64,000 nucleotides of DNA from Patescibacteria group bacterium UBA6201 (lineage in GTDB: Bacteria > Patescibacteriota > Minisyncoccia > Phycocordibacterales > UBA918). The stretch's first letter is position 1, and each line of letters begins with the position of its first letter. The stretch is taken from the NCBI GenBank assembly GCA_002422025.1, contig DISV01000004.1, positions 102,578 through 166,577 of the forward strand, read 5' to 3'. The notes beneath the pieces were generated by a model. It had not been told where the DNA came from, did not search any database, and saw nothing but the letters and a program-made list of their open reading frames with translations. Below are positions 4,984 through 29,690 of this stretch, one piece after another. The position numbers were made by a program, and so were the translations under genes.

Positions 4984-5162
4984 ACGTGAGAATGAGATTC
5001 AGCCCAGCAATCATAAAATTAACAAACAGTTCAAGTAACTGTAGCAAGAAGTTGAGAAATGATTTGATGATGGTAATAGCACTGTCCATAAACAGATTTT
5101 ATCATACACACCTTGAGACAATATTGTGTATTAGGGAAATCAGATGCCTCACCTAGCACATA

Positions 5163-5528
5163 GAAAACCGCCTAATGGCGGCTTTTCTATTGCGCGAGCG
5201 AAGGGACTTGGTCACGAATATTTTCCTGCGTAAAATTTCTCGACCCCACCTCGCTTGCCTACGGCATCGCTCCGGCCTTCAAGCCCCTACACAAGCAAAG
5301 CAGTTTGCTTGTTTCGTTCGCGCAAACAAAAAAACGGCATGAAGCCGTATTTTGTTTGCGCGAGCGAAGGGACTTGAAACTTACAGTTTCGGTACACCTT
5401 TTGGCTGTTTCTGTTCACAAGCTCCAGAAATATCTCAAAAGGTCTTCAAGTCCCTACACAAAAGTCTCCCAGATTTTTGTTTCGCTCGCACAAAGTAAAA
5501 GCCCCCTAGTGGGGACTTTTATACTTTG
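5163..5528 (-). repeat. Three tandem modules (hairpin plus 20-24 nt copy of the tRNA-Asp 3' end) downstream of tRNA-Asp
   Basis: gcgcgagcgaagggacttg occurs at 5193-5211 and 5359-5377 and again as the genuine tRNA 3' end at 5528-5546; each copy is preceded by a GC hairpin; there are also inverted degenerate acceptor copies (cgttcgcgcaaac). Confidence 0.6.
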
Positions 5529-5602
5529 CGCGAGCGAAGGGACTTGAACCCTCAACCTCTGCCGTGACAGGGCAGCGCTCTAACCAGTTGAGCTACGCCC
5601 GC
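5529..5602 (-). tRNA. tRNA-Asp (anticodon GUC)
   Basis: Acceptor GCGGGCG/CGCTCGC, D-arm TAGCTCAACTGGTTAGAGC, anticodon loop CTGTCAC, T-arm GAGGGTTCAAGTCCCTT. Confidence 0.8.
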
Positions 5603-5659
5603 AATAGGCACGATTCTAGCAGAAAACTAGAAAAATGCACGATGTTTAAGAGAGGGAAT

Positions 5660-5800
5660 AAAATGTACAGTTTCTGTACAACTTTTGGATATTTGTTTCA
5701 GCACAGCCTCACAAATCCCACAAAAGGTCATCATTCCCTATCGCACACAAAATCACGCTTACGCAAAGCGCAGAGTATTCGCTTTACGCTCGATGATTTT
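5660..5800 (-). repeat. Duplicated hairpin module plus degenerate copy of the tRNA-Met 3' end
   Basis: acagtttctgtaca-cttttgg...ttcagcacagc parallels 5383-5430; ggtcatcattccctatcgcacac resembles the tRNA-Met T-arm/acceptor ggatcattccctcccgtcgacac. Confidence 0.4.
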
Positions 5801-5801
5801 G

Positions 5802-5875
5802 TGTCGACGGGAGGGAATGATCCTCCGACCTCGGCTTTATGAGTGCCGCGCTCTAACCAACTGAGCTACGTCGAC
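5802..5875 (-). tRNA. tRNA-Met-like (anticodon CAU; elongator Met or lysidine-type Ile2, not distinguishable by eye)
   Basis: Acceptor GTCGACG/CGTCGAC, D-arm TAGCTCAGTTGGTTAGAGC, anticodon loop CTCATAA, unusual T-loop ATCATTC. Confidence 0.65.
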
Positions 5876-5914
5876 GTGTCAAGAGAATAGCATTAGACCA
5901 CCCCTTGTTCAACC

Positions 5915-5957
5915 CGTAAAACAAAGAGCCACGCGATGCGCAGCTCTTTGTTTCTTG
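5915..5957 (-). terminator. Hairpin after the initiator tRNA
   Basis: aaacaaagagc-N12-gctctttgttt. Confidence 0.4.
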
Positions 5958-6028
5958 TTGCGGGGCCTGGAATTGAACCAGGGTCTGGAGGTTATGAGCC
6001 TCCCGAGGTACCACTCCTCTACCCCGCT
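5958..6028 (-). tRNA. Initiator tRNA-fMet-like (anticodon CAU)
   Basis: Acceptor AGCGGGG...CCCCGCA-A closely resembles E. coli tRNA-fMet (CGCGGGG...CCCCGCAA) with a 1:72 mismatch; anticodon loop CTCATAA; T-loop TTCAATT. Confidence 0.6.
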
Positions 6029-6227
6029 ATGTATACAACGTTAAATTGTCCAAAGATTGTACCACTTACTGCACAAAAGTCCAGCGATATATCTCCATAA
6101 AAGGAGACTAAAATTTAGGTGATTTCGAGGCGCGCGAGGAAAATGACACGAGCCGTATATATGGACATACGGTGAGTGTTATTTTACCGAAGCGCAACAA
6201 AGAAAGCGACAAATTTTTGGCTTCTGG

Positions 6228-8708: not shown

Positions 8709-10874
<2,166 letters not shown>

Positions 10875-11079
10875 TTATTTTTCACGTATCGACAAAGTTC
10901 CGCGCCACTTCCAATACCTTATTTATTAAACGCCAAAATCGAGGGCAGTTGCAGTGCGGTCTAAAACTTAAAAATGGATGAGTGGCGAGGAGTTTAGGTG
11001 AACGAGTTGCGAGTGGGACATATTGTCCAGCGAGCAACACGTTAGCCGTAACGACAAAGCCAATCGCCATTTTTAAGTT

Positions 11080-11736
11080 TTAGTACTCGATGGTGATTTC
11101 GCGTTGGATAGTAAAGATAGAATCCAACTGATCACAAGGACGATTGTAGCCTCTAGCAAACACTACAGTGCAGATAGTTCCTGCTGTACATTCAATTGTG
11201 CCTAAACCTTCACCAGTGAGATTATAAGTAAGATCAGTAGTGGCCTCACGTAAGTCAGCAATATAAAGACTCGGTTCTGCACATTTGGCGCCATTGAGTG
11301 TGTATTGATATTTATAGTTATACAAAAGCTGACCACTACTGTTGAATAAAGTTGTGGCCTGTACTCCGGGAGGATTATTCGGATTCACTCCAGCACAAGC
11401 TAGCGATGGTGGCTGTGCCCCACCTTCCTTAAGTAACGCGCTCTTAGTAGTGGGCTGCGCTCGATGGTAACGCATACACTCAAGTCCAATCTGGGCAGAT
11501 TGAAATGATTTTTCTGATTCAATAGCAGTTACCGCCAAAAGATATTGTTTAGTGGTAACAAAAAGTAGCGACAAACCGATAGCCAATACCACACTCACAA
11601 CCACTAAAGTGATGAGTAGGGCGAAACCTTGGTTAGCTTTCGGGGCCGCTTCGCGTCCGGACGCATAAAATTGCCAAACGATTTTACGCAAACGGGTAAC
11701 TAAAAGTTTAAAACTAAAAACTGATTTAAGGTTCAT
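11080..11736 (-). CDS. Minor pseudopilin-like protein (prepilin-type N-terminus without Glu5)
   Basis: ANQGFALLITLVVVSVVLAIG hydrophobic N-terminal helix; last gene of the pseudopilin run. Confidence 0.45.
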   Translation of the reverse strand: MNLKSVFSFKLLVTRLRKIVWQFYASGREAAPKANQGFALLITLVVVSVVLAIGLSLLFVTTKQYLLAVTAIESEKSFQSAQIGLECMRYHRAQPTTKSALLKEGGAQPPSLACAGVNPNNPPGVQATTLFNSSGQLLYNYKYQYTLNGAKCAEPSLYIADLREATTDLTYNLTGEGLGTIECTAGTICTVVFARGYNRPCDQLDSIFTIQREITIEY

Positions 11737-12400
11737 AATACGTATTATAGATATAGCTTTCGAGTACCACACTATCAGAAGGACCATCGCCCCAAGACAC
11801 TTCTGACTGTACCCTCGCCAACGAATTATCTACAGAGATAGAGAGTTCACGTGTGTAGGCAGTAGCTGTTCCGCCGGAAGCACGTTGCTTAAGTGGAACA
11901 CGAGCGCCACTATGTTCGTTGATAACACAGTTACTACCACTACAACGATAAAAACTACTAGTTGTAACAGAGCCGTCTTCTGCGATTTGTACCCCACAAC
12001 GATTTGTACCTCCTACGGGACATAATGAAGCTATGGTGGTCATATTATTCCAAACCTCACCCAGGTTACTATATGTGCTTGCGTCCAACGCATCGTCCTC
12101 ACGTAACTTAACCAAGGCCTCAATACCCTCTTGTGCTAAAAAGACTGCCAAGGTGTTATCTTTTGATTGATTAGCTCTTTTGAGTCCAGAATGTGCGATA
12201 GTGAGCGGACCAACCAGTGCGATTAAGAGTACCGTAATAGCCACTAACACCTCAACGAGAGAATAACCTCTGTGGTGGTTAAGGGTTAGAAGTTTAGGGT
12301 CTAGTGATGCTTTGCCTCTAGACGCAGACACGAAAAATCGCAAAGCTATTTTTCTTAAGCTCTGTACTAGGTACTGCGTGTTGTGTACTAACATAATCAT
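11726..12400 (-). CDS. Type IV pseudopilin (prepilin N-terminal cleavage/methylation domain)
   Basis: RGYSLVEVLVAITVLLIAL class-III signal motif after a long leader. Confidence 0.6.
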   Translation of the reverse strand: MIMLVHNTQYLVQSLRKIALRFFVSASRGKASLDPKLLTLNHHRGYSLVEVLVAITVLLIALVGPLTIAHSGLKRANQSKDNTLAVFLAQEGIEALVKLREDDALDASTYSNLGEVWNNMTTIASLCPVGGTNRCGVQIAEDGSVTTSSFYRCSGSNCVINEHSGARVPLKQRASGGTATAYTRELSISVDNSLARVQSEVSWGDGPSDSVVLESYIYNTYYEP

Positions 12401-13086
12401 AAATCAAGTACGCGCTTAGTGACGGTTGTCTGTATCATAAATGCCGACCCGGTATTATTTACGCCCACCACCTCTCCCTCGATGAAGATTGTGACATTCG
12501 GTTGGAATAGATTGATGTCGTCTTCCTTACTAGCAGTATTTGACACATTAAAGTGCATAGCGGTGATATCGATGGTCGGATTAGTTAGACGAACCCACGA
12601 ACCAGTACCAACCTTACGCTCAATGGAGCCATCGGTAGAATTATGACGGTAAGCTATACGCCGATTATCCGATCCTGCGGTCAAACTTTTACCTCCTTCG
12701 ATTATAGACAAGTATGACCCTTTATTACAATCTTGATGAATCGTAACATTGCCTGTTGTCTCTGTGCCATTCGAACAATAATAAGCGAAGCCGGTCCTAA
12801 TCTCGCGAGTCATACTGTCTAGGGCAAATTGGATGTTACTAACTGACTCTTGAGTATTTTGTGCTTTAGCATTAGCGTTGATTAAGACCATCAAAGCACC
12901 GATACCCATAGTAAGAACAACTACAAAAAGGGCCATTGAAACCAGAAGTTCAATTAAGGAGAAACCACTGTTAGTACGCAGTACACGGGACGCGGGACGC
13001 AGGAACGTATTGTGTCGAGAAGCAGAAAATCGCGAAGCGATTTTCTGCTTCTCGTGTTCTGCTTGCTGTGTACTGTGTACTAACAT
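12397..13086 (-). CDS. Type IV pseudopilin
   Basis: NSGFSLIELLVSMALFVVVL prepilin motif (G|FSLIE). Confidence 0.65.
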   Translation of the reverse strand: MLVHSTQQAEHEKQKIASRFSASRHNTFLRPASRVLRTNSGFSLIELLVSMALFVVVLTMGIGALMVLINANAKAQNTQESVSNIQFALDSMTREIRTGFAYYCSNGTETTGNVTIHQDCNKGSYLSIIEGGKSLTAGSDNRRIAYRHNSTDGSIERKVGTGSWVRLTNPTIDITAMHFNVSNTASKEDDINLFQPNVTIFIEGEVVGVNNTGSAFMIQTTVTKRVLDL

Positions 13087-13088
13087 AA

Positions 13089-13733
13089 TTATTCAACAGT
13101 TATCTGACCGGCCGCATTTATTCTTATCAATCGACTACCAGTATCATTTAAGGTAGCCACTCCTACAGCACCGTCTGAGACGGTACCGTTATTTATTACA
13201 GCATCAAAATTTGGTCGCTGAAATGTAATGGACATGGTACTTAAACTGCAGTTTATACCGCTACATAACTGATTAATAGCAAAGCGTGAATCCAGTCTCC
13301 TCGTTTCCAATTCTTCGCCGGCAGTATAATAGCCATTTTCATTACTATCACGAAAAATTATGTAGCTACCCGGCTCCGCCGTGGCAAAATATATTCCATA
13401 TGGACGTCGGAACTCGCTACTGCTTCCCGTGGCCGAGAGAGAACGCGTTTGTATCTCTCGAAGTTCTAGCGCGATTTGAAAGGCTTGGTTTTTAAGGAGA
13501 ATCAAGTTATTGAACGCTCCATATCGCAGAGTAACAATACCAGTAATTAAACCGATGATTGCAGCAGTAATTAAGACCTCGAGTAAAGAGAAACCCTTAC
13601 TGGGACACGGTACGCAGCCCATGGTAGATAGTGTGCAAGACGCTTCTCGTCCAGCGACAGAAAATCGCTTCGCTCTTTTCTGTCTTTTAGATGCTAATAG
13701 ATATAGCCTCAATGAAAGTAAGAATGTTGGCAT
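13089..13733 (-). CDS. Type IV pseudopilin (start may be the internal Met at 13622)
   Basis: MGCVPCPSKGFSLLEVLITAAIIGLI prepilin motif. Confidence 0.6.
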   Translation of the reverse strand: MPTFLLSLRLYLLASKRQKRAKRFSVAGREASCTLSTMGCVPCPSKGFSLLEVLITAAIIGLITGIVTLRYGAFNNLILLKNQAFQIALELREIQTRSLSATGSSSEFRRPYGIYFATAEPGSYIIFRDSNENGYYTAGEELETRRLDSRFAINQLCSGINCSLSTMSITFQRPNFDAVINNGTVSDGAVGVATLNDTGSRLIRINAAGQITVE

Positions 13734-14508
13734 TAAAAAAGTAAACCATTACAAACGCAAGAATTAGGAATGGCGCGAACGGAACTTCACTTTTCATCTT
13801 AACACGTTGAGTGGAGCCAAAACCGAGGTACTTGTGTAGATTCACTTTCTGAAAGAGGATGATTGAAACACTAATAAGGGCGCCAATCCAGAACGACCAC
13901 ACTACCAATGAAAACACGCCATTCATTCCAACCAATAAACCGAGACTAACCGCCAACTTAGCATCCCCCAAGCCTAACCATCGCCCACTTGAGAACCACC
14001 ATAGCGAGAAAAAAAAGAAAAAAGCGATAAAGGCTGAAAGTAGCGCAGAACCAAGTCCGCTAATGTCGTTGGCAAACCAAGATTCATAACCGACAATGAA
14101 TAAAGCTAAGATAGCCAGACTAAGCGACAGTTCATCGGGAATGATCATGTGATAAAGGTCATAGACCAACACAACCACCAATATAGACATAAAGGCCGTA
14201 AGAAATACAAAAATGCCAATATCTGAAGTGTTGAAGTAAGCTAAGAGAAAAGTAATTGCTGTCAGCACCTCAACTAACGCATAACGGTATGGGATGAATG
14301 ATTGACACGAGCGACAACGACCCCTAAGGACTAGGTATGAAAAGAGCGGAAATAACTCATACCATTTAAGAGTAGTCCCACAAGACAGACAGTGGGAACG
14401 GTCGTTTAGCGAACGGTTAGTATGAAAACGGTAAATAACAACGTTTAGAAAGCTACCAATAATGAGACCAAACAAAGCCACCACAAAAATAAAAAACCAT
14501 TCTGGCAT
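13687..14508 (-). CDS. pilD: Prepilin peptidase / N-methyltransferase (A24 family)
   Basis: N-terminal CxxC..CRSC zinc motif and polytopic membrane domain. Confidence 0.85.
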   Translation of the reverse strand: MPEWFFIFVVALFGLIIGSFLNVVIYRFHTNRSLNDRSHCLSCGTTLKWYELFPLFSYLVLRGRCRSCQSFIPYRYALVEVLTAITFLLAYFNTSDIGIFVFLTAFMSILVVVLVYDLYHMIIPDELSLSLAILALFIVGYESWFANDISGLGSALLSAFIAFFFFFSLWWFSSGRWLGLGDAKLAVSLGLLVGMNGVFSLVVWSFWIGALISVSIILFQKVNLHKYLGFGSTQRVKMKSEVPFAPFLILAFVMVYFFNANILTFIEAISISI

Positions 14509-14790
14509 AAACTAAGTATAACTCCAGACACCAGTCCTGCCGTGATTTTGCGTGGATAGACCAAAGGAAGACGCTAATTTCAATCTACAGACTAACAAGG
14601 CTCTCCGTACTTAAGAATGACAAAACCATAGCAACAGTAGGACTAGTGTGAGGGTAAGCCCCACACCCACTTTTTTCAGTAACTTCTTACACATCTTTCA
14701 TGTAGCCAAAGAAGTCACGGGTAAATTTAAAAACTAATCATAAAACACCCCACTAGGTGGGGTGTTTTATGAAATTGTACAAAATGCAAT

Positions 14791-15210
14791 CTAAGAAGCT
14801 GGACAAGCAGTTCCAGCGCCGAGTGCGCTTGTAACTATTCGAGCGACACCAGTACTATCAACACAATAATATTGTGCAGTGTTAGACATTAGTTGAGCGG
14901 ACATGGCCCAAACCAACGGAGTATCGTTACAATCAACAACTGCACTGCCAGAGGTACCAGCTGCTACTTTCATAGTAGTGATGCCGGTAGTTGCGGTGCA
15001 TACACCGTCGTAAGAACGACTATTGTCGTCATAGTAAAGTTCAGCTTGAGCCCGAGAATTGTTAAGGTTTGATTTGATAGCAGCATCTGCTCCCTTATCA
15101 CGAGCGCTATTAAGTGATGCCAACACCACTGAGGCCAAGATACCGATGATGGCAATGACCACGAGGAGCTCGATGAGGGTAAAGCCGCGGCTAGATGTTT
15201 GTTTAATCAT
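14791..15210 (-). CDS. pilA: Type IVa major pilin paralogue 1
   Basis: Leader MIKQTSSRG|FTLIELLVVIAIIGILASVV; first about 120 nt of the mature region are identical to the next gene. Confidence 0.8.
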   Translation of the reverse strand: MIKQTSSRGFTLIELLVVIAIIGILASVVLASLNSARDKGADAAIKSNLNNSRAQAELYYDDNSRSYDGVCTATTGITTMKVAAGTSGSAVVDCNDTPLVWAMSAQLMSNTAQYYCVDSTGVARIVTSALGAGTACPAS

Positions 15211-15347
15211 AAAATGTAAAATAATTTTCCTTACGTTCATTTTACACCCTACACTGTGAAACATTTGAATGTGTGTGAATAACTAGGAACAAAAAAACAG
15301 CAAGCAATCAAGCTCACTGTTTTTTCCTAAACTAAACTCCTAACTAG

Positions 15348-15743
15348 TTAAGGACAAGTTGTAGCTCCTGTAGTAACTGACGCTGTAGCGGTAGTAGTAG
15401 CGGTTCCAGTTGAGTCTACACAGTATGTGGAAGTAGTAGCGCTCGAGAGAGAAGCAAAAGCTGCCCATACGTCTGCCGTATCATTACATTCACCACCAGC
15501 TGCGCTTACACCTTGTGCAACGTTAGAATCAGCACAAACATTTAAATAACTACCGTTATCATCGTAAAACAATTCAGCTTGCGCACGAATGTTATTAAGG
15601 TTGGACTTGATAGCGGCGTCCTCTCCCTTGTCGCGAGCGCTATTAAGTGATGCCAACACCACTGAGGCCAAGATACCGATGATGGCAATGACCACGAGGA
15701 GCTCGATGAGGGTGAAACCTCTTTTAAGTGTGTTCTTAATCAT
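15348..15743 (-). CDS. pilA: Type IVa major pilin paralogue 2
   Basis: Leader MIKNTLKRG|FTLIELLVVIAIIGILASVVLASLNSARDKG; Thr/Ala-rich variable C-terminus. Confidence 0.85.
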   Translation of the reverse strand: MIKNTLKRGFTLIELLVVIAIIGILASVVLASLNSARDKGEDAAIKSNLNNIRAQAELFYDDNGSYLNVCADSNVAQGVSAAGGECNDTADVWAAFASLSSATTSTYCVDSTGTATTTATASVTTGATTCP

Positions 15744-15949
15744 ATAACTAATTACTTTATAACTTACCTGCTCCAGACATCAGCTGCGTGTCTTGAACAG
15801 GACATCCGTTTAATGGATACTATCAATTCTATAGTTATTCTTGGCCACTTAGATAAATGAGTGTGGATAAGACCAGTTTTTTAATCAAGATACTTTTGAT
15901 TGGGGCCTAATTTTTTAGACTTAAAAAATTAGGTGGAGCTATGTTTAAC

Positions 15950-16081
15950 TTAAGTTATCTAACAGAGGATTTTTGGATGCAGTTATGCCAGCTGGAGGGA
16001 GTTTCGTGCGGAAGACGTATACGGACATACGACGACCAAACGAAGCGACTGAAGCTGGTGTAAATGCACCAAAAATACCTG
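15950..16081. repeat. Intergenic dispersed repeat (Q family)
   Basis: ggatgcagtt...gctggagggag...gtatacggacatacgacgaccaaacgaagcgactgaagc matches copies at 59885-60017 and 62078-62198. Confidence 0.5.
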
Positions 16082-17290
16082 TTAGATAGCGGCGGTCATA
16101 TTGTAGATAGGCATCAAGACAGATGCCAACAAAGTACCCACACCAACACCCAAGAGAACAATCATCACTGGCTCAATCAGTCCAATCAGGGTATCAACAG
16201 CGTTATTCACCTCACGTACATAGAAGGTAGCCAACGTCTTCATAATCTCCGAAAGATTACCGGTCTCTTCTCCGACCTTAGCCATCTGAGAAAGCACACC
16301 AGGAATCTCTGGATACTCAGAAATCGCATCAGCAAACGACCGGCCACCTTTTACTTCCACTAAAGTGTTCTGTAGAATTTCTTTAAAGACTGCATTATCT
16401 ACCACTTCAGCCGTTACCTCGAGTGCCTGCACCATGGAGATTCCACTTTGGAGCATCGTGGCCAAGTTGTCACAGATGCGGGCTAGGTAAAGCTTTTGAT
16501 AAAGATCTCCTATGTAAGGCAGGGTGATTTTCAACTCATCGAAGGCCCTTTGTCCGACTGGAGTCTTTAAGAAACGCCACAGAAATACTCCACCAATAGA
16601 AGCTAGTGCCAGCATTACTCCTATGTAATCAGTAAGGACAGTTGAAATGGCTATAACGATTTTGGTATAGATAGGTAGTTCCTGACCGGAGTCAATGAGA
16701 ATTTGACTAATACGTGGAATCACCATCGTAAGCATAAGTCCCATCACGAGGATGAATACTCCAACAACAAAGGCTGGGTAAACAAGAGCATTTTTAGCTT
16801 TAGTTACTACCTGGTAAGTACGGTCTAGGTAATCTGCCAAATAACCGAACGACTGTTCTAAAGAACCAGATTCTTCTCCGGCCCTAATCATATTTATATA
16901 GAAATCACTAAAGACATCAGGGTGTGCGGATAGAGAACGTGAGATTGAACTACCAGCCTGCAAATCATCAGCAATATCATTCAACACCATCTGCATCTGT
17001 GGATTTTCCGCCTCAGTACCCAATAGGCGAAATATGCGGAGTGCCGATACCTGAGCATCAAAAAGAGTGGCGAGCTGGCGAGAAAGTATAACTACTTCCT
17101 TGTTTGATATTCTTTGAAACCAAGTAATTTTAAAATTTAAAAGCTGTTGCTTTTCCTCTACCGGATCAATCGATATGACTGTATAACCGCGTTTTTGTAC
17201 GGTCGCAATGGCCGCATCGATATTACCAGCTTCGACAATACCTTCGCGTTTAACGTTAGTTTGATCAATGGCCTTATAAGAAAACAACAT
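16082..17290 (-). CDS. pilC: Type IV pilus platform protein PilC (GspF family)
   Basis: 402 aa, two T2SS-F repeats, three TM segments. Confidence 0.9.
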   Translation of the reverse strand: MLFSYKAIDQTNVKREGIVEAGNIDAAIATVQKRGYTVISIDPVEEKQQLLNFKITWFQRISNKEVVILSRQLATLFDAQVSALRIFRLLGTEAENPQMQMVLNDIADDLQAGSSISRSLSAHPDVFSDFYINMIRAGEESGSLEQSFGYLADYLDRTYQVVTKAKNALVYPAFVVGVFILVMGLMLTMVIPRISQILIDSGQELPIYTKIVIAISTVLTDYIGVMLALASIGGVFLWRFLKTPVGQRAFDELKITLPYIGDLYQKLYLARICDNLATMLQSGISMVQALEVTAEVVDNAVFKEILQNTLVEVKGGRSFADAISEYPEIPGVLSQMAKVGEETGNLSEIMKTLATFYVREVNNAVDTLIGLIEPVMIVLLGVGVGTLLASVLMPIYNMTAAI

Positions 17291-17577
17291 AGATATAGTT
17301 TAAAGTTAAAAGCTGAAAGTTGAAAGGCGTGGAGCTGTGTTTAACTTTGCCGTATCCTAACCGAAGATTTTTAGACGCAGTTGCACCAGTGCGAGGTAGT
17401 TTAGGGAGGAAGACGTGAGGTGTGGATACATTTAACAATTTGGATTGTTAAACTTTTTAAATTGGAGGAAATTCGACGGTTTGCAGGAGTTTTTGTGACC
17501 AAGGCGTAGATTGACCTACGGTGCGGGAGCAAAAACTTCGAAAACCTAGGATTTACCCAATTTTGGAAGTTTAGGAT
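17291..17577. repeat. Composite dispersed repeat (Q plus R modules) filling the pilC-pilT spacer
   Basis: gtgaccaaggcgtagattgacctacggtgcggg...cctaggatttaccc is near-identical to 54120-54215 and 51100-51160. Confidence 0.55.
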
Positions 17578-18648
17578 TTATATGAGGCGCTCTAATCCTT
17601 TAGGATTAACCGAGTAAGCAAAAGCATTCTCAACTGTAATCTCGCCCTTCTTAACTAACTCAACTAACGACCGGTTCATATCAATCATTCCGTGCTCAAG
17701 ACCAGTTTCAATCACCGTTTGTACTTCATGGGTACGCCGTTCACGAATCAGGTTAGAAACTGCACTGTTGTTGATTAAAAGTTCATAAGTAGGAATCAAT
17801 CCACCTTGAATACGAGGAATCAAACGTTGTGAAAAGATACCAGTAAGCGACCCTGCCAACTGCACACGTATCTGATCCTGCTGACCAGCTGGGAAACTAT
17901 CAATAATACGATCAATCGTTTGAGCAGCATTGTTGGTATGGAGGGTTGAAAATACCAAGTGTCCAGTCTCAGCAGCAGTCACCGCTGTCGAAATCGTCGC
18001 TGGATTACGCATTTCTCCCACTAAAATAACGTCGATGTCCTGACGAAAAACAGCATTAAGACCAGAAGCAAAATCGACAGTATCGGTACCGACCTCACGT
18101 TGCTCGATTAGAGCTTGGTCAGCTGTATAAACATATTCAATCGGATCTTCAATAGTCACAATGTGATCAGGACGACTCTTATTAATCATCTGAATCATCG
18201 ACGCTAGAGTAGTAGACTTACCTTGTCCGACCGGACCCACACAAAGAAAGAATCCTTGTGGTCTTTCGGTAAAACTCGCTAATATTGGTGGCAAATTTAA
18301 CTCTTCTAAGGACTTGATATCGTTTGGAATATGACGGAGTGCAATAGCTGGAGTACCCTGCTGATGATAAGCATTGCCACGGAAACGCACACCGTCTGAA
18401 GCAGCAAAAGAAAAGTCTACCTCTTTGGTTGCTGTAAAGTTAGTCTGCTTTTGCTCTGTCAACAAGATTCCACAAAAACCCATCACGTCTTCAGAGGTTA
18501 AAACTGGCTTCTTTACCAAAGGCACCAAGGAACCCATTACTCTAACCGCAGGATGTGTTCCAACTGACAAGTGTATGTCAGAACCCTTTTCAGACACCAC
18601 TATATCTATTAAATCTGTTAATTCTCTTCTGTAATCTACATTGGCCAT
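17578..18648 (-). CDS. pilT: Twitching-motility retraction ATPase PilT
   Basis: Walker A GPVGQGKSTT, PilT/PilU-type AAA+ domain, 356 aa. Confidence 0.9.
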   Translation of the reverse strand: MANVDYRRELTDLIDIVVSEKGSDIHLSVGTHPAVRVMGSLVPLVKKPVLTSEDVMGFCGILLTEQKQTNFTATKEVDFSFAASDGVRFRGNAYHQQGTPAIALRHIPNDIKSLEELNLPPILASFTERPQGFFLCVGPVGQGKSTTLASMIQMINKSRPDHIVTIEDPIEYVYTADQALIEQREVGTDTVDFASGLNAVFRQDIDVILVGEMRNPATISTAVTAAETGHLVFSTLHTNNAAQTIDRIIDSFPAGQQDQIRVQLAGSLTGIFSQRLIPRIQGGLIPTYELLINNSAVSNLIRERRTHEVQTVIETGLEHGMIDMNRSLVELVKKGEITVENAFAYSVNPKGLERLI

Positions 18649-18699
18649 AATTTAAATTTAAAGTTGAAAAGTCATTTTCATTTCCAAGCGAGTGCCGAA

Positions 18700-18780
18700 A
18701 GAAAGATTCTCTCACTTTCAAGCGATGCGAATAAAATGAAAGCTTGCTTGCATTTTTGAGTGAGTGAAGAAAGCAAGATT
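18700..18780. promoter_or_regulatory. Two direct repeats AAGATTCTCT(C/T)ACTT upstream of pilT
   Basis: gaaagaaagattctctcactt at about 18705 and gaagaaagcaagattctcttactt at about 18762. Confidence 0.25.
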
Positions 18781-18783
18781 CTC

Positions 18784-19146
18784 TTACTTACATAACTCCT
18801 CTACTCGCTTCACCACCTCACTTGGTATTACCTCGGCTTTAATAATGTAACCCACGGCCATAGCTTCCTTGGCTGCCGACTGGTCGGAGGCCTCACTTTG
18901 ATTAGATAGTACAATGTATTTAGTGTCCCCCGCCAAACCCAGTTTTTTAATCTCTTCCAAAAGCTCAAGTCCACTCATTCCTGGCATTATCATATCCAGC
19001 AAAACAACGTCGTAGTCGGCTTCCTTGATGTGCCGCAGCGCCTCGATCGCGTCTGTAGCGACGTCGACCTGGTGACCAGATTCAATGAATTTGGTAGCGT
19101 ACATATCTCTAAGAAAAGCATCGTCATCTACCAATAAGACTTTCAT
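18784..19146 (-). CDS. Single-domain CheY-like response regulator
   Basis: MKVLLVDDD...DVVLLDMIMPGMSGLELL receiver domain, 120 aa. Confidence 0.8.
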   Translation of the reverse strand: MKVLLVDDDAFLRDMYATKFIESGHQVDVATDAIEALRHIKEADYDVVLLDMIMPGMSGLELLEEIKKLGLAGDTKYIVLSNQSEASDQSAAKEAMAVGYIIKAEVIPSEVVKRVEELCK

Positions 19147-19327
19147 CCCGTTATAAATAAGACGCGAACACGGATGCCCTCGTACCTATGCTTAAAAGGC
19201 TACTAATGTGATTTCGACCACAAATTTCAATACCAAATGATGTGTGTCCGCTATTTCTTACGGGATTCATACGACCTCATTATACAACACACCATTTAAT
19301 TCTGATTGTTAGGTGGGTATAGCAAGA

Positions 19328-21226
19328 TTATTGTTCCTCATCTAAATCAATATCCTTAGACTCACCTTTAGTTGGCATCGGCGCCACTTGTTCTCCCAGC
19401 TCTGTCGGTAGTGCGGTATCTTCGGGTAAAAAATCTTTATCAGTTGCGGTTTCAGCACCTATTTTGGTACCAAAGGTATTAACCTCTTCATAAGGAATAT
19501 CACCTTGAAGGGCTTTCAAAATAGCGTCTTCTTTCATACTCATAAAACCCTTAGCTCGAGCCACATTATAAATCTCCTCTTCACTCCCCTCTCGCAAAAT
19601 AAGATTTTGTATGTCTTGGTCGATTTCCAACACCTCCATCACAGCGATACGTCCCTTAGTACCAGATGCGCAACCAGGAACAGGTACAGCATGATAAATA
19701 TTTTCAAAGGGAGGAAGGCGGTCACTGTAAGCTGCAGGCAAACTTTCAAACTCCTTGGCAAACATCTGCTTAGTACTTTCGTCTATAGGAGTAGCCTGAC
19801 CTGGCTTACAAAGACGTCTAGACAGACGTTGCGCAATTGCTAGTTTCAGAGTCGGTGCAATCAGATATGGGTCCACACCCATATCAATAAGACGCGGCAC
19901 TACTCCAATTGCATTGTTGGTGTGGATAGTGGAAAGTACCAAGTGACCAGTAAGGGCTGCCTGAATAGCCAACTGGGCCGTCTCTTTATCTCGAATCTCT
20001 CCTACCAAGATAACGTCAGGGTCTTGACGGAGTGCAGTTCTAAGACCATTAGCAAAAGTATAGCCAATTTCTGGACGTACTTGTGACTGTGATACACCAT
20101 CAATATTATACTCAATCGGATCTTCAAGTGAGAGAACATTCTTAGTGGCCCTATCCACCTCAGCCAACATAGCGTAAAGAGTGGTTGACTTACCACTACC
20201 GGTCGGACCGGAGATAAGGATAATACCGTATGGTTCATTAATCATTCTGCGGATTGTGGCAAGGTGATTCTTAGACATACCAGTGAGTTCCAAAGTACGG
20301 ATGCCTTTTTCATTATCCAAAATACGCATCACCACCTTTTCTCCGTGGTTGGTAGGAAACGTAGAGACTCGAAAATCAATCTTACGCCCATCGAAGGTAG
20401 CGGAAAACCGCCCATCCTGAGGCTTGCGTCTTTCATCAAGACGCATAGAAGAAAGAATCTTGATACGAGCCACGACAGCAGCCTGCACGTTACGCGGAAG
20501 TTCGATACTAGTTTGCAGGATACCATCAACTCGAAAGCGTACTCGCACCTTTCCGTTAGTCGGCTCAATATGAACGTCAGAGGCTCCCCCATCAACAGCG
20601 TAACGAAGAATAGTTGCGACAATCTTAGTGACTGGTGCGTCTTCTTTGATATGCTCAGTCGACAATTTATCCCCCTCTGCAGACTCGCTCTTTCTTTCTG
20701 CAATTTCTTGGTCAAGCTCACCTTCGAGTGAGGTTAGTGCTTGCCCGACCTCACCAGTGAGATTTTCATAACCGGTCAATAACTTTTGGAGATCTTCTTT
20801 TAATAAAAAAATGAATTTGTAAGGTATACCGTGCTTCGTACTAACGAAGTTCAAAACCTCGCGCAAACGAAAGTCATCGGGATTATTAACACCAACAAGA
20901 AGAGTGTCATTCTCAAGTTTGAGCGGTACAATCTCGTAGTTTTTAGCCGCCTCTACAGGAATAAACTCCAGCACGTTTTGCGGGACAGACTCGTCTTCAG
21001 TCGGAGTATGCGCTGGAATGTTGTAATAACGAGCTAGTCGTTCACGTACCACTTCCTTCGCTACCCCAGCTGACAACAAGGCCTTTTCTGGTGATATTCC
21101 TTGCTCTACCTGCTTACCCACTGTCACCGCTATATCTGGGGTAATAACGCCTTCTTTCTGTAATTCGTTTAAAAAATCCATTTTATGGTTGTTTAGAACA
21201 CGGGAACGTTGTTGTGCCATCTCCAA
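19328..21226 (-). CDS. pilB: Type IV pilus assembly ATPase PilB (GspE family)
   Basis: Walker A GPTGSGKSTT, GspII_E N-terminal domain, tetra-Cys region. Confidence 0.9.
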   Translation of the reverse strand: MEMAQQRSRVLNNHKMDFLNELQKEGVITPDIAVTVGKQVEQGISPEKALLSAGVAKEVVRERLARYYNIPAHTPTEDESVPQNVLEFIPVEAAKNYEIVPLKLENDTLLVGVNNPDDFRLREVLNFVSTKHGIPYKFIFLLKEDLQKLLTGYENLTGEVGQALTSLEGELDQEIAERKSESAEGDKLSTEHIKEDAPVTKIVATILRYAVDGGASDVHIEPTNGKVRVRFRVDGILQTSIELPRNVQAAVVARIKILSSMRLDERRKPQDGRFSATFDGRKIDFRVSTFPTNHGEKVVMRILDNEKGIRTLELTGMSKNHLATIRRMINEPYGIILISGPTGSGKSTTLYAMLAEVDRATKNVLSLEDPIEYNIDGVSQSQVRPEIGYTFANGLRTALRQDPDVILVGEIRDKETAQLAIQAALTGHLVLSTIHTNNAIGVVPRLIDMGVDPYLIAPTLKLAIAQRLSRRLCKPGQATPIDESTKQMFAKEFESLPAAYSDRLPPFENIYHAVPVPGCASGTKGRIAVMEVLEIDQDIQNLILREGSEEEIYNVARAKGFMSMKEDAILKALQGDIPYEEVNTFGTKIGAETATDKDFLPEDTALPTELGEQVAPMPTKGESKDIDLDEEQ

Positions 21227-21262
21227 CTAATCATTTCCGAACACTACCGTCCTGGGTATCAG

Positions 21263-21547
21263 CTACTGTGAGAAAGGATTTGGACGTCCAGCCGACACAC
21301 TCTCCGGATTAGTGTTGAACGAAACTAAAGAGCGGAACCGTGCATCATCAAAAAAGTCCCGCGATAGATCAATATTTTGAATCTCATTCAGACGCATAAG
21401 AAATTCTGTTGCCAAAAGCTCCCCCTCACTTACACCACCATCAACAGCAAGATTAGCTTCTTTGTTAACCGAAAAAATATAATAACCAGCGTAAAGTAGG
21501 CCAGCCAGGACAATGAAAATCAAAAGGTTTTTTAGTAGAGATGACAT
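21263..21547 (-). CDS. Hypothetical small single-TM protein in the PilP position
   Basis: 94 aa with N-terminal TM LLIFIVLAGLLYAGYYIF; located between pilO and pilB. Confidence 0.3.
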   Translation of the reverse strand: MSSLLKNLLIFIVLAGLLYAGYYIFSVNKEANLAVDGGVSEGELLATEFLMRLNEIQNIDLSRDFFDDARFRSLVSFNTNPESVSAGRPNPFSQ

Positions 21548-21555
21548 AATTTATC

Positions 21556-22179
21556 TTAAGACGCTGGCAAGGCGTAAGCCTCTAACAATAATGAGTACTG
21601 TAGCAAACTAGAATCAATTTCTTCAAGCTCAAATTTAAATTCAACTAACTTTAAAGGATAAGCATTTCGCTCCAAGTCACCGAGCATCGCCTTCATCTGT
21701 TCATATGTACCAACTACCTCAACTTCAAACTGCTGAACCACCAACACACCGCTCTGGCTTCCTAATAATTCTTGATCTACCAATGCACCAGTGTTCGGGT
21801 CATAGGCCGCGCTTTCTTCTACCTGGCCGTCGGCAGAATATACCGTAACCGGAAGTACCTCACTCGGGATTATATCTAGAAGCAAAAGACGGTTTCGAGA
21901 AACTATATTAGAGATATCATTTGCGACTAAAGTAGCGTCAATCTCTTTTGGTAAGTAACGTTCTAAAACCGATCGGTCATAGCCACTTAACGCGTTAGTT
22001 TGATTTACGAGAGTTTGTAACTGCTGGTTATAGCGACTAATATTGTCTAAAGCTGTTTGGTACGCCGCTACTTCACTTTGATCGATACGAATCGAATCTA
22101 TTTTTGGCTTCACGACACTAAAAGCGATAATTATCGCTACGACCAACAATGTAATTTGTATACCAACTTGAAATCTCAT
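21556..22179 (-). CDS. pilO: PilO-like inner-membrane pilus alignment protein
   Basis: N-terminal TM, coiled-coil then periplasmic domain; operon position. Confidence 0.5.
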   Translation of the reverse strand: MRFQVGIQITLLVVAIIIAFSVVKPKIDSIRIDQSEVAAYQTALDNISRYNQQLQTLVNQTNALSGYDRSVLERYLPKEIDATLVANDISNIVSRNRLLLLDIIPSEVLPVTVYSADGQVEESAAYDPNTGALVDQELLGSQSGVLVVQQFEVEVVGTYEQMKAMLGDLERNAYPLKLVEFKFELEEIDSSLLQYSLLLEAYALPAS

Positions 22180-22181
22180 AA

Positions 22182-22949
22182 TTATTGATTGACTTCCGTA
22201 GTCGACGTTGCCCCAACCTCCTCATTGTTGGTGACCGTGGATTCTGTAGCCTCGGTAGTGGAAGTAGCACTGTCGGTTATTACAACATTCTCTTCTCCCG
22301 TCAGGGGCTCTGCACCAGTCACAGTACTAGCCTCTTGTTCTGGTAGATAAGCGATACTGGATATATCTCGTGTGTCTGAGAACACGAATGAAAGGGTGGC
22401 TGAGCCAAGTATATTACTATCACCTTCGCCCTCACCAACACTGTAGTCATATTCTACAACCTTAGAGTCCTTGAGTAGACTACTGTTACCAAGAAGATTT
22501 TGTTGACTAATAATTTCTGTGAAATTATCTGCCTGACCAGTTAGATCAATTTGGAATTGATTGTTTGGTAAGTGCTGATAATGCATACCAGAAAAATAAA
22601 TATTTGAGGCAACTATTGCTTCAATGTCGCTAAAGATACGTGAAGGCGCCGAAGAGTTGTTTAAAAGTTCTTCAGCTGCAGCTAATCTCTGATGCAGTTG
22701 CTTAATGTTCTCTATGTCGTCCAAAGAGAACCTCTGTCTTTCTGCCACCATCTGATCACGCAATGAGGATAGGTCTCGGCTTACGATAGCTCCATAGACA
22801 TACACACCAATAACCGAAAACAATGTACTAAAAAAGACAATGTAGCTTATGTAAGCTAGCACGTAGATACGACGAGTACCTTTAGTGCGTTGCACCGTCT
22901 TTACTCCGCTTTTTGGTATGAAAGAAGTGCCTTCAGGCGCCATATACAA
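22182..22949 (-). CDS. pilN: PilN-like fimbrial assembly protein
   Basis: N-terminal TM VLAYISYIVFFSTLFSVIGVYVYGAIV; follows pilM. Confidence 0.5.
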   Translation of the reverse strand: MYMAPEGTSFIPKSGVKTVQRTKGTRRIYVLAYISYIVFFSTLFSVIGVYVYGAIVSRDLSSLRDQMVAERQRFSLDDIENIKQLHQRLAAAEELLNNSSAPSRIFSDIEAIVASNIYFSGMHYQHLPNNQFQIDLTGQADNFTEIISQQNLLGNSSLLKDSKVVEYDYSVGEGEGDSNILGSATLSFVFSDTRDISSIAYLPEQEASTVTGAEPLTGEENVVITDSATSTTEATESTVTNNEEVGATSTTEVNQ

Positions 22950-23082
22950 TTTATTATACGCCCACTCTGCAAATCGCTTTTATTCTCTCTGTGGACAAGG
23001 TTCTTTAAACTATCTGGTTATATGGTCTTTTAGTTTTCTGGTCGGATGGTTTCTGCTAATCCCTACGACTATATTGGCAACT

Positions 23083-24168
23083 TTATTGGAATTTGCGTAG
23101 TGCGGCGCCGAGCGCCACACCAAAAGATGAACCAATGGTTTTTAAAGTATCCTCCATAAACGCTGGATAAGCGACCTTAGCAAAAGGATGTGCCAATTCC
23201 ACTGGCCGAGCAAATCGTTCTTTAATGTACTCTAAGGCGTAAGGAGACGCAGAAACGCCACCCGTGATAACAATACGACCAATCTGTTCATTCAGACGGG
23301 CTTCGTACTGACCAATCAGTCGGCCAAATTCTGAAAGTGAGTTTTCTAAGACTGAAGTCATAGACTGATAGATAACTGGTCCCTGCTCTACCCCTCTATC
23401 AAAGGCACGCTTCTGATTCTCAGCTTCTTCAAAACCTATATTTAAACGTTCTGCGGTCAATCGAGTAATCTCACGACCACCCTGGCCGACGCGATGGAGT
23501 CGCTCCAACATACCGCCGCGGACTATGTATAACTTAGAACTTTTTGCACCAAGATCAATAATGGCTAGCGTCGAATCTTTCTGACGCCACAGAGACCGAA
23601 TCAAACTAAATGCTTCTATTTCTGCCGATTCTCCAGTCATACCAATCGCAGCAAATAGTTCTCGATGCTCTGCTAGAGCCTTATTCTCTATTGCGGCTAC
23701 AAGCACTTCTTTAAGATTACTTTTATTGTCTCCAACTGGGGGCAACTCGGACCAATCTAGAGTAACATCACTTAAAGGTAGTGGAACATACTTGCGAGCC
23801 TCGACAGGAATACGATTCGCTATATCTTCTTGTGGGCCTACGGTCACTGGAATAACAGTCAAGAAACTGGAATATAAGGACATTGCCAAAGCGCCATTAT
23901 GACCACTGACGCCAGACTCACGCATCACGTCGGTTACAGCCTCTATTTTTTTCTCTCTGGACAAGTCCACTATTTCACCCAAAGGCTTAGCATCATAAGG
24001 GCCAAGTTGGAGCTCTCCATATGTACGTAACATTACCGTGCGTGGTGTCTCTTCTATTTCTACAACCTTTACTGAAGCACTACCAACATCAATACCTACA
24101 GTGGTGGCACCAGCGTCTTTTGTCGCCTCTCTCACTCCACCAAATATTTTTTTAAAGGAAAAGACCAT
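23083..24168 (-). CDS. pilM: Type IV pilus assembly protein PilM (actin-like ATPase)
   Basis: VGIDVGSASVKVVEIEE and DLGAKSSKLYIVRGG sugar-kinase/actin fold motifs. Confidence 0.8.
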   Translation of the reverse strand: MVFSFKKIFGGVREATKDAGATTVGIDVGSASVKVVEIEETPRTVMLRTYGELQLGPYDAKPLGEIVDLSREKKIEAVTDVMRESGVSGHNGALAMSLYSSFLTVIPVTVGPQEDIANRIPVEARKYVPLPLSDVTLDWSELPPVGDNKSNLKEVLVAAIENKALAEHRELFAAIGMTGESAEIEAFSLIRSLWRQKDSTLAIIDLGAKSSKLYIVRGGMLERLHRVGQGGREITRLTAERLNIGFEEAENQKRAFDRGVEQGPVIYQSMTSVLENSLSEFGRLIGQYEARLNEQIGRIVITGGVSASPYALEYIKERFARPVELAHPFAKVAYPAFMEDTLKTIGSSFGVALGAALRKFQ

Positions 24169-24254
24169 ATTAGTAACAAGTTCAAAAATAAAAATGTAAA
24201 AAAGTTACAATTTAAAATTGAATGACACTATCATTATAACGTTAATACACAAAA

Positions 24255-29052: not shown

Positions 29053-29140
29053 ACATCCACAGTATAGAGCATGTGTAATACTCTGTCTCCGCGAACAAAA
29101 CAGAATCACCCAACACTTGTGTGTTGGGCTGATTGTTTTG

Positions 29141-29227
29141 CGGAGGATGTGAGATTCGAACTCACGGGCAGTTTTACCCGCCGGCGGTTTAGTAAACCGC
29201 TGGTTTAAACCACTCACCCAATCCTCC
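29141..29227 (-). tRNA. Type II (long variable arm) Ser-like tRNA with apparent anticodon ACU
   Basis: Acceptor GGAGGAT/ATCCTCC, 3-bp D-stem GGT/ACC, anticodon arm GCGGT-TTACTAA-ACCGC, variable stem GGCGG/CTGCC, T-arm GTGAG-TTCGAAT-CTCAC. Confidence 0.5.
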
Positions 29228-29568: not shown

Positions 29569-29690
29569 AATGTGCAGTACATATTGCCCTATTTAAGGCA
29601 TCTTTTCAAATGTTTATATAACTTCTGCATCTTTTCAAAGTTTCACTTATATGCGATGCTTGAATTAGCGAAAGGGAGGAGGTGTACAAA

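Follow-up and report, generated by a model that had tools for sequence, protein, structure and literature searches.

The repeats behind the tyrT gene of E. coli, which carry copies of the tRNA 3' end, first became known in the late 1970s. Tandem duplication is the usual assumption for these 3.14 repeats and, to our knowledge, they have never been explained. The 178-bp repeat units of tyrT/tyrV (RtT RNA, rttR, Rfam RF00391) lie directly behind the tRNA gene in the same orientation, and each unit closes with 19 nt copied from the tRNA 3' end, beginning in the T-loop; according to its annotation, RtT is an sRNA that arises by processing of the tyrT transcript. The units contain an internal inverted copy (GGGGAAGGAT), which the Rfam consensus pairs with the 3'-end copy. 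They are stacked in tandem and their copy number differs between strains, with RtT found at 1 to 9 places per genome in E. coli. This known layout was recovered in the Patescibacterial DNA analysed here, where the elements occur at many different tRNAs and vary between relatives. Literature searches for such elements in CPR/Patescibacteria returned nothing relevant.

The analysed stretch of DNA (64 kb, hereafter the window) contains a cluster of three minus-strand tRNA genes, which ARAGORN and Rfam identified as predicted: tRNA-fMet (CAU, initiator type, CGCGGGG...CCCCGCA; 5957-6028), the elongator tRNA-Met (CAU; 5801-5875) and tRNA-Asp (GUC; 5528-5602). The two extra copies of the tRNA-Asp 3' end that had been proposed from the sequence are present. 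The 21-mer TTGCGCGAGCGAAGGGACTTG, which runs from the T-loop to the 3' end of tRNA-Asp, occurs in three exact copies (5190-5210, 5356-5376 and 5526-5546), with a chance expectation of 0 copies in 100 shuffles. These copies belong to a 24-nt repeat family, spaced by 166 and 170 nt (5189-5212, 5355-5378 and 5525-5548), of which copy 1 (5525-5548) is formed by the last 21-24 nt of the tRNA gene itself and copy 2 is identical to the tRNA-Asp 3' end at 24/24 positions. Read on the plus strand, one terminator-like hairpin stands ahead of each copy, at 5162-5188 (T3), 5328-5353 (T2) and 5492-5524 (T1). The original prediction also held up for the inverted acceptor fragments in the Asp trailer (I4, 19 nt at 95%; I6, 20 nt at 90%), for a degenerate copy of the tRNA-Met 3' end (5643-5659 versus 5802-5818, 76%) and for a hairpin module shared by the Asp and Met trailers, which matches in two stretches (5377-5410 versus 5661-5694, 82%; 5420-5448 versus 5705-5733, 76%). 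The ORFs 5305-5547 and 5564-5842 had been taken for artefacts; both run antisense over tRNA genes and elements, and the public gene call overlapping 5564-5842 has no Pfam record, so that a protein-coding reading of the region was rejected. Since the whole arrangement is 100% identical in two further assemblies (L086/L089, ERZ27315056; L090, SRR5323255), it is not an assembly artefact.

Six elements of common anatomy were delimited in the window, behind five host genes (tRNA-Asp with two, tRNA-Met, tRNA-Thr(GGU), tRNA-Ser(GCU) and tmRNA). Each is non-coding, about 120-280 bp long and without an ORF. On the tRNA strand a terminator hairpin comes first, followed by a segment complementary to the acceptor 3' strand, a small hairpin, a segment complementary to the T-arm and a core of 60-150 nt; the final part is a copy of the last 18-24 nt of the tRNA, which begins in the T-loop and extends slightly beyond the discriminator. 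Every element thus contains a split internal sequence complementary to the tRNA 3' end; neither this complement nor the agreement with the RtT layout was part of the original prediction.

All elements of the Asp/Met/fMet cluster are on the minus strand. Element E1, next to tRNA-Asp (5379-5524), consists of terminator T1, an acceptor complement (5481-5490), a hairpin with the loop GGG (5459-5479), the T-arm complement AGGGACTTGAA (5445-5455) and a core of family B (5379-5444), and is followed by repeat copy 2. Element E2 (5211-5353) continues with terminator T2, an acceptor complement (5313-5325), a hairpin (AAACTGCTTT; 5292-5311), the T-arm complement AGGGGCTTGAA (5278-5288) and a core of family A (5211-5277). 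Beyond it lie repeat copy 3 (5189-5210), the displaced ancestral 3' end of tRNA-Asp, and T3, its ancestral terminator. The Met element (5643-5800) has a long hairpin (5749-5800), a partial acceptor-strand complement (5740-5748), the T-stem/T-loop complement AGGGAATGAT (5730-5739), a core of family B (5664-5729) and a degenerate 3'-end copy (5643-5663). Directly after tRNA-fMet there is a terminator-like hairpin (5919-5953, minus strand), which is homologous to the distal trailer of the loci L081 and L085.

The remaining three elements are scattered over the window. Behind tRNA-Thr(GGU) (2883-2956) the element at 2605-2882 on the minus strand comprises a terminator (2840-2882), an acceptor complement (2831-2839), a hairpin with the loop CTGC (2802-2830), a T-arm complement (2792-2801), a long core and an exact 23-nt 3'-end copy (2605-2627), after which a further terminator follows (2568-2603). 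The element behind tRNA-Ser(GCU) (29479-29569) occupies 29304-29478 of the same strand, with a terminator (29444-29478), an acceptor complement (29429-29443), a hairpin (29406-29428), a T-arm complement (29393-29405), a core of family A (29324-29392) and a degenerate 3'-end copy (29304-29323). On the plus strand, the tmRNA gene (38579-38958) is followed by an element at 38960-39182, which is composed of a terminator (38960-38999), an acceptor complement matching at 14/14 positions (39000-39013), a hairpin (39015-39036), a T-arm complement (39037-39047), a family A-like core (39048-39161) and an exact 21-nt 3'-end copy (39162-39182), with another terminator at about 39193-39229.

The same anatomy was observed outside the window in seven loci from Patescibacteria-type MAGs (L018, L033, L034, L047, L049, L081 and L085). 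Exact 18-nt copies of tRNA 3' ends were all located downstream in the same orientation, 142-319 nt off, and none was detected behind the tRNAs of the examined loci from other phyla. The downstream distance of exact 3'-end copies was 142-178 nt for eight of them and 260 nt for the ninth; a kilobase-sized insertion was seen at none of these nine copies. The original prediction had left the choice between miniature elements and larger ones that were later deleted, and these distances, together with the recurring cores, speak for the former.

At least three unrelated core families exist, and three recur, each at a roughly constant length. Core A was found at Asp-E2, Ser and tmRNA. A model (R1) of this core scored 125.8 and 114.8 bits on its two source elements (Asp-E2 and Ser) and 30.6 bits (E = 1.8e-5) on the tmRNA element, which was not part of the model. 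Core B is shared by Asp-E1 and the Met element and was further found in L033 and, in L001, upstream of fMet. The complement in turn fits the host tRNA of its own element, as the observed score was reached in 0 of 20,000 permutations of tRNA-element pairings, and it is often imperfect even where the repeat is perfect. In every element the part of the complement that covers the T-loop and the 3' strand of the T-stem stops at T54, and the repeat begins at positions 54-57; repeat and complement have the same extent. The small-hairpin loops, among them that of E2, and a motif CGGAGCGWTG are conserved across loci. AAACUGCUUU is likewise a hairpin of the elements.

All elements are predicted to fold far more stably than shuffled sequence (z -2.3 to -8.8). 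In the predicted folds a stem between complement and 3'-end copy closes the core and is accompanied by a three-way junction (-55 to -61 kcal/mol, z -3.3 to -6.4). The tRNA-sense strand gave the more stable fold in 12 of 13 elements; this preference is compositional, because the dinucleotide-shuffle z-scores are alike for both strands. As no match to a tRNA model was obtained inside the elements, a reading of them as pseudo-tRNAs was rejected.

Position directly behind a tRNA, a 3'-end copy starting in the T-loop and an internal complement that serves as closing stem are thus common to the elements and to RtT, and with respect to layout the former may be regarded as equivalents of the E. coli repeats in Patescibacteria. 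There are also differences. In E. coli, at the locus examined, the units follow only tRNA-Tyr, whereas at least five host genes including tmRNA are occupied within 64 kb here; the E. coli units are near-identical to each other while the cores described here are unrelated; a terminator is missing at the start of the E. coli unit but present in each unit here; and the short, unsplit complement of RtT contrasts with one of about 20 nt that is split by a conserved hairpin. Sequence homology was not supported either. An 18/21 match (GAGCGWTGCCGCAGGC..) was rejected after an nhmmer profile built from the four E. coli units gave only noise in 1.17 Mb and, in the reverse direction, model R1 left E. 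coli unmatched, which leaves an analogy of layout only. The covariance-model threshold of RF00391 (45 bits) was not reached, and a search of the elements against Rfam at the gathering score and at E<=10 returned only tRNAs and chance matches to long-hairpin 'miRNA' models, with no ribozyme and no RtT.

Comparison with the orthologous clusters of relatives revealed the differences in presence and absence that insertion predicts. At L083 the same tRNA-Asp is followed directly by a homologue of the distal terminator without any element, an empty site, and repeat copy 3 plus T3 is 93.6% identical over 47 nt to this tRNA end and terminator. L085 carries a single, older element behind Asp, to which the left part of E2 is 88.6% identical, and none behind Met. 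Based on these alignments the order at Asp reads as the ancestral end with T3, then E2 as the older and E1 as the youngest insertion. Behind tRNA-fMet, two different ORF cassettes are found in L081 and L085, and the window represents the empty state. Near-identical element pairs were not observed, the closest cores being roughly 85% identical by the look of the alignment, nor was an excised or circular form of an element. Exact-protein look-ups for strain-level polymorphism yielded only identical copies of the genome or contigs whose ends fall within the repeats. At the level of sequence, these comparisons establish insertion polymorphism, the order of events, a modular, mosaic build and the combination of one core with repeats and complements matched to different hosts.

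The head-to-tail units with their period of 166-170 nt, and the varying copy number of RtT, would fit an origin without any mobility, in which the tRNA 3' end was duplicated locally in tandem, or by unequal crossing-over, together with its trailer. This explanation is hardly credible, and for E1 versus E2 it is already contradicted by the sequences: terminator, hairpin and core all differ, and therefore the two are not duplicates of each other. Only the tRNA-derived pieces are common to them, homology does not extend over the whole length, and their closest kin stand behind other genes (the Met element for E1, the Ser and tmRNA elements for E2). Moreover, the sequence after each repeat copy differs, unlike the outcome of a simple duplication. 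The elements could instead be scars of integrase-bearing islands or prophages that had integrated at the 3' end of the tRNA gene and were afterwards stripped of nearly their whole interior. Williams reportedly described in 2002 the T-loop-to-3'-end repeat as the classic identity block of tyrosine integrases that target tRNA and tmRNA genes, and such integrative elements also share with those found here the restoration of an intact gene, tandem accretion beside the tRNA, the use of tmRNA and presence/absence between relatives. Nevertheless, this origin is very improbable, since the nine independent exact copies fall into one narrow size class with none kilobases away, and complete elements that agree in family and length turn up again at other tRNAs. 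The genome was seen over 64 kb and a further 9 kb, and a scan of approximately 28 window ORFs against Pfam or NCBIfam identified no recombinase, integrase, transposase or reverse transcriptase, whole or fragmentary, inside or adjacent to the elements; the scanned ORFs that gave a match encode housekeeping functions (type IV pilus, ribosomal proteins, SecY, FtsH, RecG). The others matched nothing. The repeat, core A and core B each gave 0 matches in 2.9 million viral contigs. In contrast to integrative elements, those described here measure 120-280 bp, which is too small for a double-stranded circle, and contain an internal complement, which is not known from attP sites. Simple recombination between att sites is insufficient because one core family is found at more than one tRNA, each time with repeats and complements that match. 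The original prediction was borne out in that the repeats trace successive insertions, as the empty sites demonstrate; support for att recombination by an integrase was not obtained.

It seems unlikely, though less so, that the units encode small RNAs of the RtT type that are linked to the tRNA and transcribed together with it or following it, and that the arrays are a by-product of recombination between repeats. The internal complement and the 3'-end copy would then form a stem resembling acceptor and T-arm, and tRNA-processing enzymes would therefore release a stable RNA. The annotation of RtT, which has the same layout, as an sRNA, the predicted closure of the core by the complement/3'-end stem with its three-way junction, and the conservation of the hairpin loops and of CGGAGCGWTG argue for such RNAs. 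On the other hand, each Patescibacterial unit starts with a good intrinsic terminator, which should leave little read-through, and a conserved promoter was not seen at the elements, inspection included. Presence is sporadic among relatives, the core families are mutually unrelated, ORF cassettes occupy the same kind of site and a strand-specific structural signal is absent. Other known systems resemble the elements in part. The hairpins of integron attC and CTX-phi attP offer a likeness of geometry, in that end repeats and an inverted copy near one end produce a long imperfect hairpin with a protruding branch, and integron cassettes are small, tandem and sometimes without an ORF; this likeness concerns geometry only. 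Integron attributes such as IntI, attI or a dif-like site are lacking here, no integrase was found in the scanned ORFs and conserved R'/R'' boxes are absent by inspection. MITEs likewise occur in several dispersed copies, as do the six elements in 64 kb, but they have terminal inverted repeats, whereas the inverted copy is internal and split here, and the duplication is 18-24 nt long and tRNA-specific instead of a fixed 2-10 bp.

We favour, with modest confidence, the reading that the arrays are stacks of small non-coding insertion modules, which entered one after another at the 3' ends of tRNA-type genes. A new module would insert behind the tRNA body and ahead of the 3'-end copy already there, which is why the gene would stay intact and old ends and terminators would accumulate downstream, and the module's own terminator hairpin would now end the tRNA transcript. 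The complement, split around the conserved hairpin, would pair with the 3' segment of the tRNA as single-stranded DNA or RNA and so define the stretch that is duplicated, and a protein acting in trans would cut and join. Duplications of tRNA 5' ends were also noted in L001 and L033; together with the arrangement at tRNA-Gln they are a poor fit to a purely 3'-end mechanism. A bolder version of the insertion reading, which we consider distinctly improbable, is that the elements form a new class of guide-bearing miniature mobile element, whose split complement of about 20 nt would base-pair to any tRNA-like gene at its 3' segment. The duplex would set two cuts, one opposite T54 and one just past the discriminator, the paired stretch would be duplicated on insertion by an enzyme provided in trans, and rewriting of the guide would direct the element to a different tRNA or to tmRNA; the RtT repeats of E. 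coli would be a decayed relative of the same principle. The guide tetranucleotides that IS200/IS605 elements carry at hairpin feet, the bridge RNA of IS110 and those homing spacers of CAST systems that match tRNA genes are comparable in that sequence complementary or identical to the target lies by a conserved hairpin, the target here being a tRNA gene end. Unlike these systems, the elements carry no transposase, TnpB or Cas gene, their guide-like segment is about 20 nt long and split, and duplication of the paired stretch is without precedent there.

For practical work, insertion modules of the kind favoured here matter as they break short-read assemblies at tRNA genes, give rise to false ORFs in gene calling and can be mistaken for prophage att scars by pipelines that search for islands. 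The RtT layout is now found in a distant, genome-reduced lineage, at five tRNA-type genes in 64 kb, with empty sites, interchangeable cores and host-matched repeats and complements. This observation turns a one-locus curiosity into a family that is open to comparison across many loci, and points to a mechanism that may read the tRNA 3' segment through base pairing.

ARAGORN and Rfam agreed on the three tRNA genes of the original prediction and placed them on the minus strand: tRNA-Asp (5528-5602), tRNA-Met (5801-5875) and tRNA-fMet (5957-6028). The final 21 nt of tRNA-Asp, which span the T-loop, the 3' strands of the T-stem and acceptor stem, the discriminator and a few further bases, are present in three exact copies at 5190, 5356 and 5526 (none expected by chance), and as a 24-nt family these copies are spaced 166 and 170 nt apart. 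The hairpin described as preceding each of the two extra copies was also found; on the tRNA strand it is an intrinsic-terminator-like hairpin that follows each copy. Inverted acceptor fragments were recovered by repeat self-comparison (pairs I4 and I6), as were a module common to the Asp and tRNA-Met trailers (pairs D4 and D5, 76-82%) and a degenerate copy of the tRNA-Met end (pair D9). As all of these repeats, hairpins and fragments are present, the observation is confirmed in all particulars.

Read 5' to 3' on the tRNA-Asp strand, the gene is followed by a terminator (T1, 5524-5492) and then by TGCGAGCGAA, the complement of the tRNA-Asp acceptor 3' strand. A small hairpin (5479-5459) leads to AGGGACTTGAA, which complements the T-stem 3' strand and the T-loop and ends opposite T54, and a 66-nt core (5444-5379) and the second copy of the tRNA-Asp end (5378-5355) complete this proximal element, E1. 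The distal element, E2 (5353-5211), shows the same order of parts, but its terminator (T2), hairpin and core all differ from those of E1; it is followed by the third copy (5210-5189) and terminator T3 (5188-5162). The Met trailer has the same plan, comprising a long hairpin, AGGGAATGAT, a core homologous to that of E1 and the decayed tRNA-Met end copy, with AGGGAATGAT complementing the T-arm of tRNA-Met itself. The full 460 nt of the Asp trailer are predicted to fold with -222 kcal/mol (z = -11.5). Among the elements, the tRNA-sense strand only seems to fold more stably than its complement, a difference that stems from base composition.

Each tRNA in the window was scanned for copies of its own ends, and the sequence was searched with a covariance model derived from five elements, which revealed the same architecture at three further sites. 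These are located behind tRNA-Thr(GGU) (2605-2882, exact 23-nt copy), tRNA-Ser(GCU) (29304-29478) and the tmRNA gene (38960-39182, acceptor complement 14/14, exact 21-nt copy), so that six elements are found at five of nine tRNA-type genes within 64 kb. A tRNA-Ser with anticodon ACT (ACU) was called by ARAGORN at 29140-29227 (-), adjoining the ordinary tRNA-Ser(GCU); A34 in a serine tRNA is unusual for bacteria. A tRNA-Ile with anticodon TAT (UAU) at 34793-34867 (+) is followed after 24 nt by a degenerate 29-nt copy of its T-arm and acceptor end (GTCCTTAGTGCGAGTCCAAGAGTGCAAAC, 34892-34920, +) and then a terminator. This copy is a short, older duplication without an element core.

A metagenome search with the Asp 21-mer yielded four relatives of the locus, two of which (L081 and L084) are the same sequence, and one chance match (L082). 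In L083, a tRNA-Asp 3' half identical to that of the window runs directly into a terminator without an element, and this tRNA end and terminator are 93.6% identical over 47 nt to the distal window copy and T3; L083 is thus an empty site. L085 carries a tRNA-Asp that is 100% identical over 79 nt to that of the window and is followed by one element, the left half of which shows 88.6% identity to E2; a plain 71-nt spacer lies behind its tRNA-Met. From these two states, the ancestral arrangement was tRNA-Asp followed by T3, with E2 gained first, E1 inserted later between the gene and E2, and the Met element acquired separately. Neither E1 nor E2 is a copy of the other, and the closest relatives of each lie behind other genes, which excludes a simple tandem duplication. 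At tRNA-fMet the window is in the empty state and has no ORF, whereas in L081 (525-1110) and L085 (reverse strand, from tRNA-fMet to tRNA-Met) an ORF separates the gene from a decayed 3'-end copy (GATTCCA...GCAACA). The two ORFs, a membrane protein of 154 aa and a soluble protein of 163 aa, are unrelated, so the same kind of site also accepts protein-coding cassettes. The end of the fMet-specific element in L081 (1230-1330) holds three short tandem units (TAGAAACCTGAYGTCGATTCC), each with the T-loop-like TCGATTCC of tRNA-fMet. The comparison demonstrates repeated insertion at the 3' end of genes with duplication of the segment from the T-loop to the end, and mobility or turnover over the times that separate species of one genus or family.

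Among loci fetched through GatA, exact 18-nt copies of tRNA 3' ends were found only downstream and in the same orientation, 142-178 nt away, with one exception at 260 nt and one at 319 nt that represents two units. They occur in L018, L033, L034, L047 (twice) and the window, and L049 has a 16-nt copy. All of these loci belong to Patescibacteria-labelled or unclassified MAGs with a common gatA and fMet-Met-Asp neighbourhood, and GatA-fetched loci of other phyla had no such copies at any tRNA. At least three core families, unrelated to one another, can be told apart. Family A (CGGAGCGWTG ... GGGGTCGAGAAA ... ATTCGTGAC) is found in E2, the Ser and tmRNA elements, L047 (Met) and L081 (Asp and fMet), family B (GACCTTTTG ... 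AAAAGGTGTACAGAAACTGTAAG) in E1, the window Met element, L033 (Asp and Met), L085 and L001, and family C in L047 (fMet) and L034 (Met).

Every element brings a new terminator, and cores are reused at different hosts, core A at Asp, Ser and tmRNA within one genome. Covariance model R1 scored 125.8 and 114.8 bits on its two training members, E2 and the Ser element, and 30.6 on the tmRNA element, which lies outside the model. Even where cores are homologous, the direct repeat and the internal complement are always those of the local tRNA, and none of 20,000 permutations of the element-tRNA pairings reached the observed score. The complement ends opposite T54 in all elements, and the repeat runs from positions 54-57 to 1-7 nt beyond the discriminator; the duplicated stretch is therefore the one that can pair with the complement. 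Perfect repeats often go together with an imperfect complement (Thr, L033, L034, L047), which suggests that the complement moves with the element, whereas the repeat is either generated at the site or held identical there. Elements are also mosaic: L085 joins T2 and a family-A hairpin to a B-type core, the switch falling where the T-loop complement ends, and the Ser element combines a terminator similar to T1 with a hairpin similar to that of E2.

Duplications of tRNA 5' ends occur too, so the process is not strictly confined to 3' ends. In L001, the closest GTDB relative, a 24-nt repeat made up of the leader and the first 8 nt of tRNA-fMet flanks the B-type core, which lies upstream of this tRNA, and L033 has a similar case at fMet. 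In the same genome as the window, about 1-10 kb outside it, tRNA-Gln(UUG) (L089, 12209-12465) has an exact 20-nt copy of its own 5' end 64 nt upstream, and after 44 nt downstream its last 55 nt recur exactly. These fragments overlap by TA and, if joined, would give another complete gene; it looks as though 180 nt of DNA with a whole tRNA-Gln had entered the D-loop of a second copy. Two small ORFs of 83 and 86 aa (L089, 12728-12979 and 17513-17773) consist only of a GIY-YIG nuclease domain, one of them 360 nt downstream of this tRNA-Gln. The tRNA-fMet of L001 (10717-11050, +) is split in its anticodon loop by a group I intron (RF00028, 60.2 bits, 10740-11004), and is therefore missed by ARAGORN; immediately upstream, the opposite strand holds an ORF of 220 aa that includes an HTH domain (9770-10429).

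The E. coli tyrT operon contains 178-bp repeats, each with the last 19 nt of tRNA-Tyr. This locus (NC_000913, 1286000-1288200) was marked up like the window elements: each unit ends in AATCCTTCCCCCACCACCA, beginning in the T-loop, and contains an inverted copy, GGGGAAGGAT, about 60 nt past the previous copy, as well as part of the T-arm 5' half in direct orientation (AAGGTTCG). The Rfam model RtT (RF00391) matches all four units with 133-137 bits, and its consensus structure pairs the internal complement with the downstream 3'-end copy; these shared features give RtT and the Patescibacterial elements the same layout. Of 5426 complete E. coli genomes, 4700 carry RtT units, with between 1 and 9 places in each (median 2); 18 places are plasmid-borne. 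The function of RtT is still described as unknown. However, no RF00391 match was obtained on the window elements even at E<=10, an nhmmer search with a profile made from the E. coli units gave only noise and model R1 had no match in E. coli; judged by sequence, the elements fall outside the RtT family. In contrast to RtT, a terminator opens each Patescibacterial unit, the complement is longer and split by a conserved hairpin, the cores are unrelated and many different tRNA-type genes serve as hosts. The elements are classed as a variant, not described before, of the known, unexplained RtT-type tRNA-linked repeats.

Of the original proposal, successive insertions of miniature elements at tRNA ends are supported, but a role of an integrase and att sites is conjectural. 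No recombinase, transposase or reverse transcriptase was found in about 28 scanned ORFs. Viral contigs with element sequences were not found either. That the elements are non-autonomous miniature insertion modules is somewhat favoured. The split complement, held by the conserved hairpin, would pair with the tRNA 3' segment, and this pairing may set which stretch is duplicated; that the mechanism is guide-based and new in kind is unlikely, though not remote. An RtT-like processed small RNA with the arrays as a by-product is a doubtful alternative, weakened by the element terminators and the sporadic distribution, yet it is the stronger of the competing explanations. Scars of integrase-bearing islands are decidedly improbable: a classical T-loop integrase accounts for the repeat boundaries and the use of tmRNA, but leaves the internal complement, size and retargeting unaccounted for, and this reading is further weakened because sizes fall in a narrow class and complete elements recur. 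Plain tandem duplication is contradicted by the unlikeness of neighbouring units and can hardly be upheld.

The window comes from the chromosome of a Patescibacteria/Parcubacteria-type bacterium. The tRNA cluster neighbours ligA, gatC, gatA, a DUF2238 protein and a prfA-like RF-1, and the top relatives of GatA are from Parcubacteria/Paceibacterota MAGs (71% and 67% identity). A long type IV pilus/type II secretion gene cluster at about 11000-24200 (-) encodes N_methyl pilins, a prepilin peptidase, T2SSF, two T2SSE ATPases and PilM; it is a candidate DNA-uptake apparatus, of relevance to the elements if they spread by transformation. A 233-kb ENA contig and a contig of another SRA run both match the tRNA-cluster sequence at 100% identity. 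Because internal repeats disrupt assemblies, short-read (Logan) contigs of the same organism break at the repeated tRNA 3' ends, with L087 stopping in tRNA-Asp (window 5557) and L091 beginning in tRNA-Thr(GGU) (window 2936); L002 likewise terminates directly past tRNA-fMet. Elements of this kind fragment assemblies and stay hidden at contig ends.
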